Assembly (NCBI GenBank): GCA_964406605.1
Contig: CAYOSF010000001.1
Location: forward strand, 212,303 to 276,302
DNA length: 64,000 nucleotides
DNA from: an uncultured Dehalococcoidia bacterium
GTDB lineage: Bacteria; Chloroflexota; Dehalococcoidia; DSTF01; RBG-16-68-14
Direction: 5' to 3'
Positions 5,790 to 62,598 of this stretch are shown one piece after another. The notes beneath the pieces are model-generated. The model did not search any database. It had not been told where the DNA came from and saw nothing but the letters and a program-made list of their open reading frames with translations. Each line of letters starts with the position of its first letter. Within the stretch, counting starts at the first letter, position 1. The position numbers and the translations under genes were made by a program.

Positions 5790-6380
5790 ATGAATCCGCT
5801 CGCGCACGTGACCGTCGGCTGTGGGGTGGTCTGGCTGGGCTCGCGGATCGCGGAGCGGGCACTCTACGAGCCAGCCCGCCCGGAGATCGAAGACGGCCAG
5901 GCGGAGCCATACCCACCGCCTGCCGGCGCCGAGGCGGTCGCGACTCCAACGCTCTCCGATAGGATCGACTACCGCCTCGTGGCAGTGGGCGCGTTGTTGC
6001 CGGATCTCGTCGACAAGCCTATCGGCAAGATCTTGTTCCGCGGCCCTCTCGAAGACAACGGTCACGTGTTTGGGCACACGCTTCTCTTCACGCTGGCGAT
6101 CTTGCTGCCGGGCATCTACTTGCTCGCCCGCGCGGGTGACCCACGGTTGCTTGCGGTGGCGGTTGGCTCGCTGAGCCATATCGCGATTGACCCGGTGAAC
6201 CACGCTCCCCGAACGCTCTTCTGGCCGCTGCTCGGGCTTGGATTCCCGCACGTCTCGTTTCTTGACGTGCGCGCGACGATCATCACCGAGGCCGGGGCCG
6301 GCCTGATGCTGCTCGTGGCCGCGGTCGCGCTTCAGCGCCGGGGGCGGCTTGGGCGACTCGTGCGGGAAGGAAGGCTCTAG
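5790..6380 (+). CDS. membrane-bound metal-dependent hydrolase, YdjM/DUF457-like
   Basis: The protein starts MNPLAHVTVGCGVVWLG and has conserved His residues in the hydrophobic segments (HTLLFTL, SHIAIDP). Its C-terminus, REGRL, is shared with the downstream paralog. Confidence 0.6.
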   Translation: MNPLAHVTVGCGVVWLGSRIAERALYEPARPEIEDGQAEPYPPPAGAEAVATPTLSDRIDYRLVAVGALLPDLVDKPIGKILFRGPLEDNGHVFGHTLLFTLAILLPGIYLLARAGDPRLLAVAVGSLSHIAIDPVNHAPRTLFWPLLGLGFPHVSFLDVRATIITEAGAGLMLLVAAVALQRRGRLGRLVREGRL

Positions 6381-49965: not shown

Positions 49966-50016
49966 TTGACGCGCCGGCCGGCCCGCGCTATAGTTATTAT
50001 GAACACTGGTTCATAA
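49966..50016 (+). promoter_or_regulatory. strong sigma70-type promoter carrying a GAAC-N4-GTTC (Cheo/LexA-type) operator at the predicted transcription start
   Basis: The promoter is TTGACG (49966-49971), a 17-nt spacer, and TATAGT (49989-49994). It is immediately followed by the perfect palindrome TTATGAAC-ACTG-GTTCATAA (49997-50016), inside a local AT-rich island. Confidence 0.45.
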
Positions 50017-55510: not shown

Positions 55511-58500
55511 CTACCGGAAGCTGTGCGTGCGCTCGTGGGGCACGCGGGCGTCATCGAGCGGCAGCCGCTCCATGCGCTGCGTGACGACGTTGACCGCGCG
55601 CTCCTGCCGCTCGATGTGGCCGTGGACGATGAGGGCGCCCGCCTCGGTGACGAGCTGCTTGTAGCGCCGGACCAGGCCCGGGTTGGTGATGACGTTGATC
55701 AGCCCGTAGCGGTCTTCCAGCGTGTGGAAGACGAATCCCTTCGCGGTCTCCGGCGCTTGGCGGACGGCGACGAAACCGGCGACCGTCACCTTCGTTCCGT
55801 GTTCGAGCCGCTCGACGATGTGGCTGGGCGTGATGCCTTCGTGCAATGCGCCCGTGGCCAGGTCCGTGATGTGGCCGCGCGTGGAGACGGCGCCCTCCGT
55901 GAGGACGAGGTCCTCGCGCACCCGCTCGCCGTCGTTCATCTCCAGTAGCGTCACCATCTCGGCTTCGTAGGGGAGAGCGAGGGGAGACTGCGCGCCCAGG
56001 GGCTGGTAAAAGAGACCGAGCTGCCAGAGCAGCTCTCGCTCGTGGAGTCCGGTGAAGGCGAAGGCGCCGAGACGGATCAAGTGTTCGATCGGCTCCCGGG
56101 GGAGGCGGGTGCGATGCCAGAAGTCCCAGAGGGAGAGGTAGAGGCCCCGATCTGAGCTTGCCGAACCGTTGTGTCCCGGCGGAGTGTAGTGGGTGCTCTG
56201 GGCAGCGGGCTCCTCCGTCATTCTGAGCGCCAGCGAAGGATCCGGCCTTTGTGGAGAGGAGGCTTTCGAAGGGCTAGACCCTTCGCTTCGCTCAGGGTGA
56301 CCGAGGGTTTGATGCGCCTCCTCGTCCAATCGCTTGAGGGCCGCCTCGCCGATTCCCTTGACATAATTGAACCCGAGACGGATCGCATCATCTTTCCCCT
56401 CGGCGGGCGGGCTCTCGATGATGCATTCCGAGCGGCTGCGGTTGACGTCGACGCCCAGGATCTCGACGCCGTTGCGGCGCGCCTCGTTGACGACGACGCC
56501 GGGGCTGTAGAAGCCGAAGGGCCACTCGTTGAGCCAGGCGCAGTAGAACTCCAGTGGGTAGTAGCGCTTCACCCAGGCGAGCTTGCCGGCCGTCTCCGCC
56601 ATCGCCGCGGCGTGCGCCTTGGGGAAGCCGAACTCGGCGAAGGCGAGGATCTTGCCGAAGATGCGCTGGGCCGTCGCCTCGTCCACCAGGCCCTTCTGGC
56701 GGGCGCTCTCCAGGAACGTCTCCCGCAGCCGCTCCATCTCCTCCCGCGAGCGCTTGCGACTCATCGCGCGGCGCAGGCTCTCGGCCTGGCCCGCCGTGAA
56801 GCCGGCGACGGCCATCGCTACCTCCAGGACCTGCTCCTGGAAGACGATGACGCCTTTGGTCTCGCTCAAGATCGGCTCCAGGCACTCGTGGTCATAGGTG
56901 ACCGGCTCCGCGCCCTGGCAGCGCAGGATGTAGGGGTTGACGGCGCCGCCCTGGATGGGACCAGGCCGGATGAGGGCGACCTGGATCACCAGGTCCTCGA
57001 TGGAGCTGATCTTGAGGCGCAGGATCGCCTGGAGCTGGGCGCGGCTCTGGATCTGGACGATACCCAGGATGTCGCCGCGCTGGATCATCTCATAGACCTG
57101 CGGGTCGTCGAGGGGGACGCGCACGGGGTCGATGCGGCGGCCGTGGCGCTCCTCGATGAGCTGGAGGGAGCGGTAGAGGTGGCCCAGGCTGGGGTAGCCG
57201 AGGAAGTCCATCTTGATGAAGCCGGCGTCGGCCACGGAGTCCTTGTCCCACTGGCAGATGTAGCGGCCGTCCATAGCCGAGGGCTGGACCGGCACCTGCT
57301 CGACGATCGGGGTGCTGGAGATGATGACGCCGCCGGAGTGCTGGCTGAGGTGGCGGGGCTTGCCGCGCAACTCCTCTACCAACCGCACGAACTCGCGCCA
57401 GACCGGCGCGTGCATCCGGCTCCGGAACTCAGGCATCGCCTGCATCTCCTCGACCAGGGAGTGAGCGAAGCGACGCCGCATCCGTTTGGCCAGCTTGTCG
57501 ACGTCGGCCTCCGGCAGCCCCAGGGCTTTGCCCACGTCGCGGATCGCCATCGGGTAGCGATAGGTGATGACGTTGGCGACGAGCGCCGCCCGCTCCGTGC
57601 CGTAGGTGGCGAAGACGTGCTCGAACATCCGCTCGCGGGCGTCGCGGGCGAAGTCGAGGTCGATGTCGGGCACGTCCTCCTTCTGGCGGGCTTCATTGAG
57701 GAAGCGGCCGACGAAGAGATCGTACTTGATCGGGTCGATGCCGGAGAGTCCCAGCAGGTAGCAGACCAGAGACCCGACGGAGGAGCCCCGGCCCCGGGCC
57801 GGCAGCTCGTGTTCGTGGGCGTAGCGCATCAGCTCCCAGTTGCGCAGGAAGAAGCCGGCCTGGCCGGCCTGCCGGATCAGGTCCAGCTCGTGGCGGAGTC
57901 GATCTTTCACTTTGGGCGCGGCCCAGCCGTAGAGCTCGCGGGCGCTGGCGAGGCAGACCTCCTCGAGGAACTCGTCGGCTGTCCTGCCCGCGGGCGCTTC
58001 GAAGTCGGGAAAGCGATAGGTCAGGTCGCGGGTGAGGTCAAAGCCCTGCCCTGAGCTTGTCGAAGGGGCCTGGGGCGCGCCCTGAGCGAAGCCGAAGGGC
58101 GGCTGGTTGTTATTCTCTGGGGTGGGGTTGGCGCTGTAGGGGCCGGATTCTTCGCTTCGCTCAGAATGACAGTTGGGAACGCAGCGCTCGGCGATGACGA
58201 GGGTGTTGCTGATCGCCTCCGGCAGGTCGGCGAAGAGGGCGGTCATCTCCTGCGGCGGCTTCAGGTAGAACTCCGCGTTCTTGCGACGCAGCCGCTCCGA
58301 GGCGTCCAGCGTGGTGCGGTGGCGCACGGCCACCAGCACGTCCTGAAGTCGATGGCGGGCGCGCTCGTGGTAGTGGACGTTGTTGGTGGCGACGACGCCC
58401 AGGCCGAGATCCCGGGCCAGCGCCACGAGGCCCCGGTTGCGGGGCCGGTCGCCGTAGACCAAGTTGTCCTGGAGCTCGATCCAGAAGCCCTCCCGGCCGA

Positions 58501-59002
58501 ACAGATCCAGGTAGCGGCCGGCGGCCCGGTGCGCGCCTTCGATGTCTCCGGCGGCGACGAGGCGGGGCACCTCGCCCTGCCGACAGCCGGAGAGGGCGAT
58601 GAGCCCCTCGGTGTGTCCGGCGAGGGCTTCCGGGTCGAGGACGGGCTCGTCACGCGGGCTGGAGAGATGGGCCTGCGAGAGGAGGCGGCTCAGGTTGGCG
58701 TAGCCGCGCGGCGTCTCAGCGAGCAGAGTGAGGTGATGACTTGTAGGGGCGCACGATTGTGCGTCCCTACCTGGCGATGTGCCACCACGAAGGGTCACCT
58801 CGGCGCCGATGATCGGGCGGACGCCCCACTCCTTGGCCGCCTGGGCGAACTCCATTGCGCCGGCCAGGCCGTCGTGGTCGGTGAGCGCAAGCGCCGGGTA
58901 GCCGAGCCGGCGCGCCTCGAGCACCAGTTCGAGCGGCGTGGAGGCGCCTTCCCGGAAGGAGAAGCAGGAATGGCAGTGGAGCTCAACGTAGGATGTGTTC
59001 AT
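55511..59002 (-). CDS. dnaE2: DnaE-type DNA polymerase III alpha subunit, probably the error-prone DnaE2/ImuC type, carrying two in-frame repeat-element insertions
   Basis: The PHP domain reads MNTSYVELHCHSCFSFREGASTPLELV, followed by the pol-beta-like and finger regions and an OB-fold near the C-terminus (HTLEDRYGLINVITNP). The protein ends about 20 aa after the OB-fold with no tau-binding tail. Its native length after removing about 100 inserted residues is about 1060 aa. A catalytically dead imuB-type Y-family polymerase gene lies 2.3 kb away. The DnaE2 assignment is inference with confidence about 0.6; the DnaE-family call is solid. Confidence 0.85.
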   Translation of the reverse strand: MNTSYVELHCHSCFSFREGASTPLELVLEARRLGYPALALTDHDGLAGAMEFAQAAKEWGVRPIIGAEVTLRGGTSPGRDAQSCAPTSHHLTLLAETPRGYANLSRLLSQAHLSSPRDEPVLDPEALAGHTEGLIALSGCRQGEVPRLVAAGDIEGAHRAAGRYLDLFGREGFWIELQDNLVYGDRPRNRGLVALARDLGLGVVATNNVHYHERARHRLQDVLVAVRHRTTLDASERLRRKNAEFYLKPPQEMTALFADLPEAISNTLVIAERCVPNCHSERSEESGPYSANPTPENNNQPPFGFAQGAPQAPSTSSGQGFDLTRDLTYRFPDFEAPAGRTADEFLEEVCLASARELYGWAAPKVKDRLRHELDLIRQAGQAGFFLRNWELMRYAHEHELPARGRGSSVGSLVCYLLGLSGIDPIKYDLFVGRFLNEARQKEDVPDIDLDFARDARERMFEHVFATYGTERAALVANVITYRYPMAIRDVGKALGLPEADVDKLAKRMRRRFAHSLVEEMQAMPEFRSRMHAPVWREFVRLVEELRGKPRHLSQHSGGVIISSTPIVEQVPVQPSAMDGRYICQWDKDSVADAGFIKMDFLGYPSLGHLYRSLQLIEERHGRRIDPVRVPLDDPQVYEMIQRGDILGIVQIQSRAQLQAILRLKISSIEDLVIQVALIRPGPIQGGAVNPYILRCQGAEPVTYDHECLEPILSETKGVIVFQEQVLEVAMAVAGFTAGQAESLRRAMSRKRSREEMERLRETFLESARQKGLVDEATAQRIFGKILAFAEFGFPKAHAAAMAETAGKLAWVKRYYPLEFYCAWLNEWPFGFYSPGVVVNEARRNGVEILGVDVNRSRSECIIESPPAEGKDDAIRLGFNYVKGIGEAALKRLDEEAHQTLGHPERSEGSSPSKASSPQRPDPSLALRMTEEPAAQSTHYTPPGHNGSASSDRGLYLSLWDFWHRTRLPREPIEHLIRLGAFAFTGLHERELLWQLGLFYQPLGAQSPLALPYEAEMVTLLEMNDGERVREDLVLTEGAVSTRGHITDLATGALHEGITPSHIVERLEHGTKVTVAGFVAVRQAPETAKGFVFHTLEDRYGLINVITNPGLVRRYKQLVTEAGALIVHGHIERQERAVNVVTQRMERLPLDDARVPHERTHSFR
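56217..56301. mobile_element. MITE-like palindromic element (copy B) inserted in-frame in dnaE2
   Basis: The plus-strand sequence is GTCATTCTGAGCGCCAGCGAAGGATCCGGCC...CCCTTCGCTTCGCTCAGGGTGAC. The terminal inverted repeats are about CCCTGAGCGAAGCGAAGG. The element is read through as HPERSEGSSPSKASSPQRPDPSLALRMTEE in the polymerase. Confidence 0.6.
58045..58172. mobile_element. MITE-like palindromic element (copy A, opposite orientation to B, with a partial extra TIR copy) inserted in-frame in dnaE2
   Basis: The coding-strand sequence is GTCATTCTGAGCGAAGCGAAGAATCCGGCC...CCCTTCGGCTTCGCTCAGGG. This gives about 85% identity to copy B over the ends. It is read through as CHSERSEESGPYSANPTPENNNQPPFGFAQGAPQAPSTSSG, between the conserved AERC and FDLTRDLTYRFP segments. 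Confidence 0.6.
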
Positions 59003-59067
59003 CGGTATACAGTGATGCCGATCTGGTATATACTAATGGTGACCTTGTATTAACTGAGAGGTGCATC

Positions 59068-59343
59068 GTGGCTATCGCAACTATCTCTGCCAAGGGGTGG
59101 GTCGTCATCCCGCAGGAAATCCGCAAGCGGTACGGCCTGAAAAAGGGCGACAAGGTTCATATCATCGACTACGCCGGGCGTATCGCCATCGTCCCTGCTC
59201 TCAAGGACCCGGTCCGACAAGCACGAGGGATGCTCAGGGGTGGGCCCTCGCTGACAAAGGCGCTGCTGGAGGAGCGTCGCTGGGAGCTGGAGAAGGAAGA
59301 GCGGAAGCTCCAGCGCTGGTCGGGCGATGCCAAGGCACAGTAG
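59068..59343 (+). CDS. vapB: AbrB/MazE/SpoVT-type antitoxin (VapB-like)
   Basis: The protein contains VAIATISAKGWVVIPQEIRKRYGLKKGDKVHII (looped-hinge helix swapped-hairpin fold). It is 4 nt upstream of a PIN-domain gene. Confidence 0.7.
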   Translation: MAIATISAKGWVVIPQEIRKRYGLKKGDKVHIIDYAGRIAIVPALKDPVRQARGMLRGGPSLTKALLEERRWELEKEERKLQRWSGDAKAQ

Positions 59344-59347
59344 TCCC

Positions 59348-59767
59348 ATGCCGGTCCGATTTGTGCTGGATTCTTTCGCGGTAATGGCGCTCTTGCTGGA
59401 CGAGCAGGGAGCGGCCAGAGTCGAGGAGCTGCTAGAAGGGGCTGGCATGGGAGAGCATGAACTATACATAACGGTCGTCAATCTGGGGGAGGTTCTCTAC
59501 ACGTTCGAGAACCGACGCGATATGGAGGCCGCTCAGGAGGCGCTGGCCTTTGTTGACCAATCGCCTATCGAGATCGTAGAAGTCGATCGATCTCTGGCCC
59601 TGAACGCGGCACGGCTGAAGGCGACGACGGGGATGGGCTACGTCGACTGTTTTGTCGCGGGCTGCGCTCAGCGCCTGGATGCTGCCGTCGTCACCGGCGA
59701 CCCTGACTTCCGGCGAGTCGAGGATCTGGTGGCCATCGAGTGGTTGCCAGGGGCTGAGGAGGAGTAG
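59348..59767 (+). CDS. vapC: PIN-domain ribonuclease toxin (VapC-like)
   Basis: The protein starts MPVRFVLDSFAV (first acidic residue) and contains ...GEVLYTFE..., VDCFVAGCAQRLDAAVVTGDPDF, in the pattern of conserved PIN acidic residues. Confidence 0.75.
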   Translation: MPVRFVLDSFAVMALLLDEQGAARVEELLEGAGMGEHELYITVVNLGEVLYTFENRRDMEAAQEALAFVDQSPIEIVEVDRSLALNAARLKATTGMGYVDCFVAGCAQRLDAAVVTGDPDFRRVEDLVAIEWLPGAEEE

Positions 59768-59924
59768 TGGCTCTCGCAGGAGACCCAGCGGTGTCGAGGC
59801 GTTCTGCCAGAGGGAGAAGCAGCGGCAGTGAAGTTGGCCGTAGGTCACGGATCAATGATAGCGAACACATGTTCTATCCGCAACCCCGACGGGACGGCAT
59901 TGCAGTAGGGGATACCGCTCAGCC

Positions 59925-60605
59925 ATGGCCCGCCTCCGGACGCTGAGGGAAGCCTTTCTGGCCGGTCTCTTCGTGGTGTTCCTGGCCGGCACCCTGTTCG
60001 GCTCGGCCGGCCGCGTCGACTGGCCGATGGCGTGGGCCTACCTCGCCGTCTACCTGGCGTTCACCGTGGGCGCCTTCTTCGTCCTCGACCCGGAGCTGAT
60101 CCGGGAGCGCGGTAGGGCGGAGAGCGGGATCGAGCGAAGGGACGCGGCGCTGGCGAGCTTCGCCTTCATCTGGCTGTATCCGTTGCCGCTCATCGTCGCG
60201 GGGCTGGACACTGGTCGCTACGGCTGGTCGCCGGACATTCCGTTGGCGGCGCAGGCGGCGGCTCTGGCGATCTTCGCGCTCGCGCTCGGCTTCGCGTTCT
60301 GGGCGATGATGGTCAACCGGTTCTTCTCGACGTTCGTCAGGATCCAGAGCGAGCGCGGGCACCACGTCGTGACCGGCGGGCCCTACGCGTACGTCCGTCA
60401 CCCGGGCTACAGCGGCACCATCCTGTCGACGGTTGTGCTGCCCATCGCGCTTGGGTCCTTGTGGGCGCTCATCCCCGCGTGCATCGGGGGGTTCCTGTTC
60501 GCCGTTCGCACGCAGCTCGAGGACAGGACGCTACAGGAGGAACTGACCGGGTATCGCGAGTACGCGGCGAACGTCCGCTGGCGTCTGCTTCCCGGCGTGT
60601 GGTGA
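59925..60605 (+). CDS. isoprenylcysteine carboxyl methyltransferase (ICMT/PEMT) family membrane methyltransferase
   Basis: Multiple TM segments are followed by the C-terminal VVTGGPYAYVRHPGYSG...FLFAVRTQLED...EE SAM-binding signature. Confidence 0.75.
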   Translation: MARLRTLREAFLAGLFVVFLAGTLFGSAGRVDWPMAWAYLAVYLAFTVGAFFVLDPELIRERGRAESGIERRDAALASFAFIWLYPLPLIVAGLDTGRYGWSPDIPLAAQAAALAIFALALGFAFWAMMVNRFFSTFVRIQSERGHHVVTGGPYAYVRHPGYSGTILSTVVLPIALGSLWALIPACIGGFLFAVRTQLEDRTLQEELTGYREYAANVRWRLLPGVW

Positions 60606-60658
60606 CGGGCGGGGTACGTTGGCGGTGTCCCGGTGACGGAGTCTCCGCTTCCAGGTAG

Positions 60659-61042
60659 CTACGGCTTCGGCGGCGGCTCGTAGGAGAAGATCGTCTTCAC
60701 CGGCGGCAGCAAGAACGGTGGCGCGGTGGCCGAGACGTAGATGAGCGGCTCGTCGCCGGGGTTGTAGATGGCGTGGTCGGTCTTGGGCGGGACGAAGACC
60801 ATCGTGCCCGGCCCGACCTCCTCTTGCTCCTCTGCGACTTTCATCAGCCCGCGACCGCGGACGATGACGTAGACCTGCTCGTTGTCTGGGTGGGCGTGCA
60901 TGGCTTGCTCGCTGCCGGGCTCTCCCTCCACCCAGGTGATGGACATATTGGACGATCCGAACTGGCCCTTGGTCAGCAGGAGGTACGAGACCTGACCGCC
61001 GCGATGGTTGCGCGGGCTTTCTTCGATGGTCTGCGTGTGCAT
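60659..61042 (-). CDS. cupin-domain protein
   Basis: The protein contains HAHPDNEQVYVIVRGRG...GTMVFVPPKTDHAIYNPG (cupin motifs 1 and 2). The start is taken at the internal Met MHTQTIEE. Confidence 0.7.
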   Translation of the reverse strand: MHTQTIEESPRNHRGGQVSYLLLTKGQFGSSNMSITWVEGEPGSEQAMHAHPDNEQVYVIVRGRGLMKVAEEQEEVGPGTMVFVPPKTDHAIYNPGDEPLIYVSATAPPFLLPPVKTIFSYEPPPKP

Positions 61043-61119
61043 CTGGGTTCCTCCGTCCCCATTGGCGTCCTTCGTTGCTGAGGGCGAGTGTAGCACGGGC
61101 GGGTGGGGGAGCTAGGGAC

Positions 61120-61410
61120 TCACCCATACCGCTGCTCCCACCACGATCCCTTGATCTCGTCTCGGAACGCGGTCACCACGCGACCGTCCTCCAGCAGCAG
61201 CTCGTAGTAGGTGCGGGAGACGGGCTCCGCCGTCCACCAGCGGTCGTCCGTCCGGTAGCGGTCCAGCACCTCGTCCACCCCTAGCCAGCGACCGTTGCGC
61301 AGGAGCGCGCTCGGGGCGCCGTCGACGCCCGCGCGCACCTCGACCTGCCGGGGAGCGTTCAGGCGTCGTAGGGTAGGAGGGCGTTCCGCTCCTCCGGGTG
61401 TCGGGACCAC
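61120..61410 (-). CDS. small Trp-rich ORF overlapping the imuB 3' end by 52 nt; probably the detached C-terminal domain of ImuB (frameshift or split gene)
   Basis: The 96-aa ORF lies in a different frame and ends in ...RWWTAEPVSRTYYELLLEDGRVVTAFRDEIKGSWWEQRYG. The ImuB-like ORF is about 100-130 aa shorter than typical ImuB proteins. A GTG start is also possible just after the imuB stop. Confidence 0.4.
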   Translation of the reverse strand: MVPTPGGAERPPTLRRLNAPRQVEVRAGVDGAPSALLRNGRWLGVDEVLDRYRTDDRWWTAEPVSRTYYELLLEDGRVVTAFRDEIKGSWWEQRYG

Positions 61411-62531
61411 GGGTCCACCTCCTCGATGCGCCAGATCATCGGCCGGCCGTAGCGGGCGCGGAGCTGCCGGATGGCCTCGGCGATCTGGTTGAGGTTCTGC
61501 TTCGTGTCGTTGAAGAGCTTGGCCTGCTTCGCCACCTCCCGGCCGATACCGGTCAGGGTGACGGTGACGGTATCGACGGCCTGGGGCAGCTCCAGCAGCG
61601 CCAGGCGGGTCTTGAGCACGAGTGTCATGAGGCGCTCGTCCCCGGTGGGCTCCCGGAACGTCTCGAACCGCTCCCAGACGATGCGCTCCTCGGCCAGGAG
61701 CTGGACGTGCATGCGGCGCGCCGTGCGCCCTCGCAGGCGGCGGACCAGGCGCGCCAGGAGCTGCCGGCCGGCCATCGTCAGCGCCTCCGTCGTCGCCACG
61801 GGAGCATCGAAGCTCAGCCGGTCGCTGAGCGCCTGCTGGCGCTTGCGGGGGTGGAGCGGCTCCTCATCGATGCCGCTGGCCAGCTCCCAGAGGCGCTTGC
61901 CGGCGCGGCGGAACTGCGCCTCGACGGACGGCTGGGGCAGGGCGGCGACGTCGCCCAGCGTGCGTAGGGCGAGCAGATCGAGTCGTTGTATGACATCCAG
62001 ATCGAAGGGGAGGAGGGAGACGTCCTTGTCCTGAAGGAACTCCTGCTCGTGGCCTTTCGGGACGACGCCGGCATCGCCCGGAGGGGTGATGGACGCGGCG
62101 GCCCAGGCGACGAACTTCCCTTCCGCGATGCCGGTGCCGGCGAGCAGGCCCGTCGCCCGGCGGGCCGCTTCGACCAAGTCTCCGGCCAGGACGAACTCGT
62201 CCTCGTAGTGGCCCTGGAGCCCTTGTATGTCGGCGTAGGCGCAGCCGAGCCCGGCGGGCTCGACCTGAGGAGCGACGTCCTCCAGACCGTCCAGCATCGC
62301 CTCGAACGCGGCGCGGTAGAGGGCGTGGTCGGCATCGATGAAGGCGGCGTGTGGGCAGAGGGCCTTCGCCTGCCGGAGCGGCAGCCCTTCGCAGACTCCC
62401 GCGGCGTCGGGCGACGCGTCGAGGACGGTGTGCCGGTCGTAGACGATGACCGGTCCGCCCGTGGTGGACGGGTCTCGCAGCGATTCCACCACGACGGCGA
62501 AGGAGGGGATGAGGACGCAGGCGATACGCAC
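61359..62531 (-). CDS. imuB: catalytically inactive Y-family polymerase, ImuB-like
   Basis: It has the Y-family fold. The N-terminal MRIACVLIPSFAVVVE replaces the DinB catalytic D-x-D (VDMDCFFAAVE). LGCAYADI replaces the S-(L/I)-D-E-A-Y-L-D acidic pair. A GTG start has a GGGAG Shine-Dalgarno. Confidence 0.75.
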   Translation of the reverse strand: MRIACVLIPSFAVVVESLRDPSTTGGPVIVYDRHTVLDASPDAAGVCEGLPLRQAKALCPHAAFIDADHALYRAAFEAMLDGLEDVAPQVEPAGLGCAYADIQGLQGHYEDEFVLAGDLVEAARRATGLLAGTGIAEGKFVAWAAASITPPGDAGVVPKGHEQEFLQDKDVSLLPFDLDVIQRLDLLALRTLGDVAALPQPSVEAQFRRAGKRLWELASGIDEEPLHPRKRQQALSDRLSFDAPVATTEALTMAGRQLLARLVRRLRGRTARRMHVQLLAEERIVWERFETFREPTGDERLMTLVLKTRLALLELPQAVDTVTVTLTGIGREVAKQAKLFNDTKQNLNQIAEAIRQLRARYGRPMIWRIEEVDPWSRHPEERNALLPYDA

Positions 62532-62569: not shown

Positions 62570-62598
62570 ATTATATCAGAACGAATGTTCCATAGCAA
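62570..62598 (-). promoter_or_regulatory. sigma70-type promoter with an embedded LexA-type Cheo box upstream of imuB
   Basis: On the minus strand the sequence is TTGCTA, then TGGAACATTCGTTCTGA (17 nt), then TATAAT. The spacer contains the palindrome GAAC-ATTC-GTTC (plus strand AGAACGAATGTTCC, 62578-62591). This matches CGAACRNRYGTTYC in 12 of 14 positions. Confidence 0.6.

Follow-up and report, generated by a model that had tools for sequence, protein, structure and literature searches.

The window analysed here is a 64-kb stretch (64,000 nucleotides, nt) of contig CAYOSF010000001.1 from an uncultured Dehalococcoidia bacterium, and all positions below are counted from its first letter unless another locus is named. 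Towards its end the window carries what is very probably a native 'split ImuB' SOS-mutagenesis module, in which an inactive Y-family polymerase (PolY) and a separate ImuB C-terminal-domain protein (ImuB-C) of 96 amino acids (aa) occur together with the polymerase DnaE2. The split-ImuB architecture has already been published, and the locus shows those of its defining features that could be tested. The following features are central to this reading:

61359..62531, minus strand: gene of an inactive Y-family polymerase (iPolY, ImuY-like), 390 aa, GTG start, which forms the 'N-terminal half' of the split ImuB
61120..61410, minus strand: imuB-C gene, encoding an ImuB C-terminal-domain protein that stands alone and belongs to the DUF6504 superfamily, 96 aa, GTG start
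61359..61410, minus strand: dual-coding overlap of 52 nt (polymerase in frame 0, imuB-C in frame -1), from open reading frame (ORF) calls and locus comparison
55511..59002, minus strand: dnaE2, error-prone C-family polymerase and catalytic partner, NCBIfam NF004225 at 2e-284, above the cutoff

An earlier note on this DNA had described the pair as an ImuB-like gene that appears split, and the coordinates, the 390-aa and 96-aa sizes and the 52-nt overlap that it gave agree exactly with the ORF list. The codon phases (62531 mod 3 = 2; 61410 mod 3 = 0) show that the small ORF is read in frame -1 with respect to the polymerase gene. The note had also stated that characterised ImuB proteins are about 100-130 aa longer than the 390-aa product, and two canonical ImuB proteins of 487 and 503 aa do exceed it by 97-113 aa.

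[quoted passage not shown] This assignment follows from three lines of evidence: DUF6504 corresponds to the ImuB C-terminus; a profile of 136 diverse standalone homologs (A2) matched one of 13 canonical ImuB C-termini (A3) in hhalign with 94.5% probability and an E-value of 8e-8; and a tblastn search of plasmids with the window ORF returned two matches only, in Deinococcus ficus and D. deserti (E 1e-4 and 7e-3), both of which are 'DUF6504 family protein' genes of lexA-imuY-imuB-C-dnaE2 cassettes. The hhalign match spans 87 columns, covers residues 11-96 of the window protein and reaches the extreme C-terminus of ImuB, and the standalone and canonical domains have in common the motifs PR..L..P..v.V, R....WW, R.YY, DG....v(F/Y)R.. 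and a W. The canonical ImuB sequences were obtained through dnaE2 neighbourhoods. A canonical ImuB-C query in the homolog search returned just 15 truncated fragments, and C-terminal ImuB fragments ('protein ImuB') are annotated with PF20114. A match of the 96-aa ORF to a ComEC tail in the Pfam and NCBIfam scans was set aside as spurious.

The small protein is predicted by an alignment-based AlphaFold2 (AF2) model to be all-beta with six strands, at a predicted local distance difference test (pLDDT) score of 86.9; block by block the score is 52, then 74, then 91-97 in blocks 3-9 and 84 in the last block.

61123..61353, minus strand: predicted beta-barrel core of ImuB-C, residues ~20-96, from the AF2 model; residues 1-19 form a low-confidence leader

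Twenty residues are invariant across 43 small-ORF sequences, with W58, W59, R66 and W90 invariant or nearly so, and the description of the ORF as Trp-rich is apt, as five of its 96 residues are Trp. The traits given by Aravind et al. 2013, a small all-beta domain (here as modelled), a conserved C-terminal Trp and basic residues, are all found. Foldseek gave no match between the AF2 model and the PDB below an E-value of 0.6, in agreement with PMC12926913, where the fold of the ImuB-C beta-barrel is called novel, and a profile search of PDB sequences with the small-ORF family returned nothing meaningful.

The 390-aa product matches the Pfam family IMS (5.8e-19) and also IMS_C. Among NCBIfam models the DinB families are nearest, with scores far under their cutoffs, and tblastn of the dead polymerase against plasmids found DinB genes and no canonical imuB; the Y-family part thus resembles DinB more than it does canonical ImuB. 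In a BLASTP alignment with E. coli DinB the catalytic residues D8, D103 and E104 correspond to L7, G96 and C97. Because all three carboxylates are replaced, the polymerase at 61359-62531 is catalytically dead, as the earlier note had called it. That note had also named two findings which together would tell against a split ImuB, namely intact orthologs of about 390 aa and a small ORF unlike ImuB C-termini. Ortholog ORFs are indeed 385-400 aa long, whereas the lack of ImuB C-terminal similarity was not seen, and this half-and-half outcome is what a native split architecture predicts.

Beyond the Y-family fold, the polymerase carries three C-terminal elements:

61512..61526, minus strand: beta-clamp-binding-type motif QAKLF, residues 336-340, by sequence inspection
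61425..61493, minus strand: RecA-N-terminus-like (RecA-NT) motif LNQIAEAIRQLRARYGRPMIWRI, residues 347-369, by Smith-Waterman alignment
61362..61424, minus strand: conserved polymerase C-terminal tail EEVDPWSRHPEERNALLPYDA, kept down to the most distant loci

QAKLF is a putative clamp-binding motif by its fit to the consensus Qxx[LM]F, and its counterparts in orthologs are conserved as Q[AT]KLF or QGSLF. The RecA-NT motif aligns with residues 10-32 of E. coli RecA at a Smith-Waterman score of 37, which was reached by 4 of 2000 shuffles; the match is weaker in distant orthologs than in the window polymerase, and the Pfam RecA model did not detect the motif in the polymerase. Its placement after the clamp motif is the one described in a passage of PMC6511836. 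The 20-residue tail EVDPWSRHPEERNALLPYDA is conserved even in the most distant loci and is colinear with the '...VESDVPERN...' ('SDVPERN') segment that lies between RecA-NT and ImuB-C in the canonical ImuB of Agrobacterium and Cupriavidus; the polymerase and the small protein therefore rebuild the canonical ImuB domain order. The polymerase stop codon at 61359-61361 comes ahead of ImuB-C, which is in the other frame, and this places the locus outside the definition of a fused ImuB.

The pair is predicted to be under SOS (LexA) control, with the following element in front of the polymerase gene:

62579..62590, no strand assigned: Cheo-type LexA (SOS) box GAACATTCGTTC, by pattern search, 48-59 nt upstream of the polymerase gene start

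In 16 of 20 loci the orthologous gene has a perfect GAAC-N4-GTTC box in the 200 nt that precede it, and for 12 of the 16 the distance is 47-64 nt. No lexA gene was found in the operon, the window or the fetched loci, and tblastn of the 64-kb window and 24 related loci found neither ImuA nor RecA homologs. The dnaE2 product has the Pfam PHP, DNA_pol3_alpha and finger domains and shares 897 identical residues with the DnaE2 of a related contig (L001), where dnaE2 stands directly 3' of imuB-C. The two genes are directly next to each other, overlapping or adjacent, in L001, L004, L007, L011, L016-L019, L021 and L027; dnaE2 starts 8 nt inside imuB-C in L001 and L027, and many relatives share this 8-nt overlap. 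In L003 a 39-aa ORF is called at the usual dnaE2 start and the dnaE2 call begins further downstream. One protein of the representative library (P0181, 523 aa) has the ImuB-C domain (residues 1-96) fused in frame to the DnaE2 PHP and N-terminal domains; this ImuB-C::DnaE2 fusion is either natural or the product of a 1-nt indel in the 8-nt overlap.

The two-ORF arrangement is widespread among relatives. A homolog search with the 96-aa ORF returned 219 proteins, nearly all of them standalone and 95-96 aa long; the 120 of these that were listed have 65-88% identity at ~100% coverage, and 113 of the 120 are 95-96 aa. In a profile search of 1.84 billion cluster representatives, 1313 clusters (50% identity) were found at E<=1e-3, and the best 150 of them are nearly all standalone proteins of 71-164 aa. 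Gene calls on two homolog contigs (L001 and L003) comprise a 390- or 391-aa IMS protein, the 52-nt overlap and a 96-aa ORF, and a scan of GTDB genomes added 19 further loci at 39-74% identity, all in metagenome-assembled genomes (MAGs) of Chloroflexota/Dehalococcoidia, to which every named organism among the loci examined belongs. In nearly all of these 19 the distance from the end of the polymerase ORF to the small ORF's DRWW motif is exactly 113 nt and the frame offset is the same, and in nearly all loci examined the overlap measures 52 nt, with exceptions of 58 nt (L020) and 8 nt, the latter through a duplication (L008). Even L027, whose small ORF is 38% identical to that of the window, has the same 52-nt overlap as well as the 8-nt overlap with dnaE2. 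Such recurrence of a ~390-aa ORF, a -1 overlap and a ~96-aa ORF in independent contigs and MAGs is far beyond chance, and the comparison with related loci that the earlier note had called for supports its two-ORF option, the same split and -1 overlap being present throughout.

This conservation leaves next to no probability that a sequencing or assembly error, in the form of a 1-nt indel, artificially split a single gene. Nothing but the frame offset itself speaks for such an error, whereas the identical frame arrangement is found in independent assemblies from ENA, JGI, NCBI and Logan, and the exact 96-aa sequence of the window is already recorded in public data from a 471-kb contig. In the public records examined, the small gene is a 'hypothetical protein' or unnamed.

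Divergence by codon position was compared in 12 loci in register. In the part of the small ORF outside the overlap it is 0.25/0.25/0.47 at positions 1/2/3, a pattern which marks the small ORF as a translated, constrained frame; within the overlap, divergence tracks the polymerase frame (0.15/0.15/0.44). These patterns indicate that both reading frames are under purifying selection. Synonymous divergence in the polymerase frame is the same in the overlap as upstream of it (0.435 vs 0.426), and therefore the overlap appears to hold no extra hidden constraint, e.g. a frameshift-stimulating structure.

The same data bear on the idea that a recent frameshift broke a once-fused imuB and that the 96-aa ORF is a decaying remnant. 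The colinearity of the polymerase tail and small ORF with fused ImuB would suit such pseudogenisation, as would the fused ImuB encoded on the megaplasmid of Thermomicrobium roseum, which represents another Chloroflexota lineage. It is nevertheless highly improbable, since the split is kept across homologs down to 38-43% identity and the small ORF combines a clear purifying-selection pattern with its 20 invariant residues in 43 sequences and a confident fold prediction; any fission would therefore be ancient and both products functional. The alignment with intact ImuB, which the earlier note had proposed as a way to locate a frameshift, recovered the colinear order.

The junction between the two ORFs holds a complete set of initiation signals for the small gene:

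61417..61422, minus strand: Shine-Dalgarno (SD) sequence GGAGGT of imuB-C, 6 nt before the start codon, from the junction alignment

GGAGGT is found at the same position in 19 of the 22 aligned loci, and in L027 as well. It is spelled by the codons for E-V in the polymerase tail, and the imuB-C start is formed by the Pro-Trp/Cys codons of the polymerase (CCG TGG, CCA TGG or CCA TGC; the window has CCG TGG), so that the conserved pattern reads GGAGGT followed by CC[A/G]TG[G/C] and the ribosome-binding site and start of imuB-C sit within the last 20 polymerase codons (conserved E-V-D-P-W). Many representatives of the family (87/149) open with MV or VV. No X_XXY_YYZ heptamer or homopolymer run occurs in the zone permissive for a -1 shift in any of the 22 loci. 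Because the SD sequence and start are conserved, MV and VV starts are common and the heptamer is absent, the best reading of the junction is that imuB-C is separately initiated from its own SD and start codon, probably with translational coupling to the polymerase.

Several points weigh against a native split ImuB at this locus. The window protein scores below threshold with the Pfam model DUF6504 (PF20114), which is the relevant family rather than the DUF4113-like one named in the earlier note: the match over residues 24-81 has 15.1 vs 24.2 bits and an E-value of 0.028. This model appears to be insensitive and not contradictory, because a bona fide Agrobacterium ImuB (503 aa, adjoining imuA and dnaE2) is also sub-threshold, at 22.6 bits over residues 426-500. 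A narrower profile of 43 sequences (A1) matched single canonical ImuB sequences weakly, with E-values of 0.004 and 0.014; only the comparison between profiles, made with the more diverse A2, was convincing. Four of the 22 loci are without a canonical start codon at the conserved position, which reads ATC in L006, ATA in L009 and L010 and GAG in L008. The dnaE2 gene of the window is not co-transcribed with the polymerase/imuB-C pair. Lastly, the proposed contacts with the clamp, RecA and DnaE2, like the proposed mutagenic role, are taken over from the literature.

To initiate imuB-C independently, the four start-less loci would have to use a near-cognate codon or, in the case of L008, a start that has been relocated. 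At the start position of L006 (6001), L009 (6001) and L010 (199), which is ATC or ATA, GGAGGT is unchanged and there is a stop four codons upstream; the protein begins there with a near-cognate start, or else 24 codons later, without the conserved LRRLNxPR. L008 has an 80-nt imperfect tandem duplication (49/80 identical) of the polymerase/imuB-C junction at 5884-6043, which appears to turn the 52-nt overlap into an 8-nt overlap, ATGCCTGA, with a longer imuB-C leader.

These loci also enter into the case for programmed -1 frameshifting, by which the polymerase would be fused to the small ORF as a ~470-aa ImuB, instead of or besides the free 96-aa protein. The -1 frame of the small ORF, the colinearity of such a fusion with canonical ImuB (RecA-NT, PE(E)R segment, ImuB-C) and the SD-like GGAGGT upstream, as in dnaX, point in the same direction. 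We consider it very unlikely, given the absence of slippery heptamers and homopolymer runs, the unconstrained synonymous sites of the overlap, which suggest no conserved slippery site or stimulatory structure, the optimal spacing of 6-7 nt between the SD and a start codon that is conserved in 18 of 22 loci, and the plain 4-nt ATGA overlap of the Deinococcus homologs.

It is also possible, but distinctly unlikely, that the small protein is real and starts downstream, e.g. at the GTG of 'VEV' (codon 25), leaving no true coding overlap. Residues 1-13 are poorly conserved in distant homologs and predicted to be disordered, the first canonical start of L006, L009 and L010 is at that position, and a few database homologs are 72-78 aa long. 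GGAGGT, however, is spaced for the upstream start and not for codon 25, and the conserved LRRLNxPR (L17, N18 and P20 invariant), which aligns with the canonical 'RMLARPE', precedes codon 25; the 87 of 149 representatives that begin with MV or VV do so at the conserved site.

A bolder view, which we regard as unlikely, is that the long and ancient -1 overlap is more than a packing accident and that near-cognate starts or frameshift fusion yield both split and fused ImuB. A near-cognate start or -1 fusion could operate in L006, L009 and L010, and perhaps at a low level everywhere; if so, two ImuB isoforms, split and fused, would come from one locus. In a milder form, the overlap may be what was left behind when a frameshift split a fused ImuB, which would make the split systems of this clade derived, not ancestral as the literature proposes. 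Among the four options that the earlier note had listed for the split, the genuine two-ORF arrangement is thus the one upheld, while frameshift pseudogenisation, sequencing error and programmed frameshifting are not, on the evidence of a split found in more than 200 homologs and every locus examined, selection in both frames, an SD and start of its own and no slippery site.

A native split ImuB could work as follows. The SOS-regulated operon would give rise to two proteins, the dead Y-family polymerase and the separate ImuB-C, the latter made from its own SD and a GTG inside the last codons of the polymerase and coupled to its translation. By homology with canonical ImuB, both proteins together would fulfil the function of the fused form. 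From what is known in the literature, the dead polymerase would dock on the sliding clamp and on RecA, RecA docking being proposed because no ImuA is encoded nearby, and the ImuB-C beta-barrel would hold DnaE2, which would carry out mutagenic lesion bypass. We further propose that the conserved polymerase tail may serve as the tether for the separate ImuB-C, by analogy with the UmuC tail that binds UmuD'.

The position of dnaE2 in the window differs from that in many relatives. It is on the same strand as the pair, ~2.1 kb downstream, behind three opposite-strand genes. The two genes imuB-C and dnaE2 are separated by an inserted block of ~2.1 kb (59003-61119), whose insertion point lies precisely behind the ancestral dnaE2 start, ATGG(C/G)TGAGT. 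The features of this region are:

61120..61127, minus strand: ATGGGTGA, remnant of the ancestral dnaE2 start, from junction comparison; in relatives this is the 8-nt overlap with the imuB-C stop (ATGGCTGA, MAEYVELHCHS...)
60659-61096, minus strand: cupin, by Pfam, in the ~2.1-kb block
59925-60605, plus strand: ICMT/PEMT-family methyltransferase, by Pfam, in the ~2.1-kb block
59327-59767, plus strand: PIN toxin, by Pfam, in the ~2.1-kb block
~58993-59343, plus strand: MazE/AbrB antitoxin, by Pfam, pairing with the PIN toxin

Adjacency of imuB-C and dnaE2 is also lost in the MAGs L005, L006, L008-L010 and L012-L015, most of which keep the ATGG remnant. A second perfect LexA-type box, GAACACATGTTC, lies at 59863-59874, 51-62 nt upstream of the ICMT-family methyltransferase gene and thus at the spacing of the box before the polymerase gene; it may confer SOS control on the methyltransferase gene or be a relic of the displaced dnaE2 promoter region. 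A third GAAC-N4-GTTC match, at 50001-50012 between the genes for a trehalose-synthase-like glycosyltransferase and an Fe-S/CCG-domain protein, is probably a chance match (3 in the window vs 0.73 expected).

The DnaE2 protein of the window is 1163 aa long vs 1041 aa in the L001 ortholog, as a result of three in-frame insertions:

58049-58180, minus strand: DnaE2 insertion of 132 nt relative to the L001 ortholog
56153-56314, minus strand: DnaE2 insertion of 162 nt relative to the L001 ortholog
58745-58786, minus strand: third DnaE2 insertion relative to the L001 ortholog

The 132-nt and 162-nt inserts share the exact 15-mer CTGAGCGAAGCGAAG. Imperfect inverted repeats (GTCACCCTGAGCG...CGCTCAGAATGAC) bound the 162-nt insert, a shorter inverted repeat (GAGCGAAGCGAAG...CTTCGGCTTCGCTC) lies inside the 132-nt one, and these long inserts look like small elements of the miniature inverted-repeat transposable element (MITE) or repetitive extragenic palindromic (REP) type, inserted in frame.

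For annotation, the locus is better described as 'inactive Y-family polymerase (ImuY-like) + ImuB-C (DUF6504) protein' than as a disrupted imuB. The split-ImuB mutasome is hereby extended to a large uncultured Dehalococcoidia/Chloroflexota clade, with 219 close homologs and 1313 clusters in the wider family. The stable 52-nt dual-coding junction also offers a natural construct for the study of how ImuB-C and the Y-family subunit assemble and of the direction of change between fusion and fission.

Aravind et al. 2013 (PMC3765255) reported solo ImuB-C alongside DnaE2 and a DinB that is inactive. A combination of iPolY, ImuB-C and DnaE2 without ImuA, of the Kyrpidia tusciae type, is described in passages of Timinskas and Venclovas 2019 (PMC6511836), from which it would follow that the dead polymerase binds the beta clamp and, without ImuA, RecA through the RecA-NT motif; the same passages cite Warner et al. 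for an interaction that ImuB's C-terminal region makes with DnaE2 and ImuA'. In passages of PMC12926913 (NAR 2026), iPolY plus ImuB-C is explicitly called 'a split ImuB', a 'DnaE2X' group is distinguished, ImuB-C is reported as a beta-barrel of novel fold, and AlphaFold models have ImuB-C bind the PHP domain of DnaE2. The Kyrpidia tusciae-type system shares with the window its inactive PolY, which carries a RecA-NT-like motif, its standalone ImuB-C and its DnaE2; it lacks ImuA, of which no homolog was found in the 64-kb window. The surveys of Kyrpidia-type and DnaE2X systems were made on complete genomes. Words starting with 'Chloroflex' have no occurrence in the main texts of PMC6511836 and PMC12926913, and the passages of these two papers that matched our search terms make no mention of a long conserved out-of-frame overlap.

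The canonical ImuA-ImuB-DnaE2 system (M. tuberculosis, P. aeruginosa, C. crescentus) likewise has a dead Y-family fold and a DnaE2 partner, and canonical ImuB and the window pair have the same order of RecA-NT-like motif, PE(E)R segment and ImuB-C. Canonical ImuB, however, is one polypeptide of 487-503 aa with imuA directly upstream (Agrobacterium pTi, Cupriavidus plasmid), whereas in the window ImuB-C is separate and no imuA was found. On the megaplasmid of Thermomicrobium roseum (L023, NC_011961.1, 1715-7180), a 'recombinase A' gene, probably ImuA-like, overlaps the gene of a 416-aa 'hypothetical protein', and dnaE2 follows; the 416-aa protein has IMS_C and an ImuB-C-like C-terminus and is thus a fused form. 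This locus is useful for polarising fusion versus fission. In the literature the split state is proposed to be ancestral; the overlap and the fused Thermomicrobium homolog might suggest that a fused ImuB underwent fission. Pol V (UmuD'2C) and YqjW/YolD, as treated in passages of PMC6511836, resemble the window in a Y-family subunit with RecA-NT motif and conserved tail and in a small all-beta subunit encoded next to it; they differ in that the Y-family subunit is active, the accessory fold is SH3-like and there is no DnaE2.

Deinococcus lexA-imuY-imuB-C-dnaE2 cassettes, where ImuY and DnaE2 have been shown genetically to be needed for DNA-damage-induced mutagenesis (PMC8072749), are also like the window: an inactive Y-family polymerase, a small ImuB-C and DnaE2 follow in the same order, under LexA control and with no imuA, of which none was found in the 64-kb window either. 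The two differ in that lexA is the first gene of the Deinococcus operon whereas the window has the box and no lexA gene, and in that Deinococcus ImuY ends right after the RecA-NT-like motif whereas the window polymerase has an extra conserved tail of 20 aa. Deinococcus ImuB-C is ~80 aa long, while that of the window has a leader of 17-19 aa; the 4-nt (ATGA) overlap of Deinococcus contrasts with one of 52 nt, kept down to 38% identity; and the dnaE2 gene of the window, unlike that of the Deinococcus cassette, is displaced by 2.1 kb. What is specific to the present locus is its occurrence in a large uncultured Dehalococcoidia clade, the long and conserved 52-nt out-of-frame overlap and the displacement of dnaE2 in this genome.

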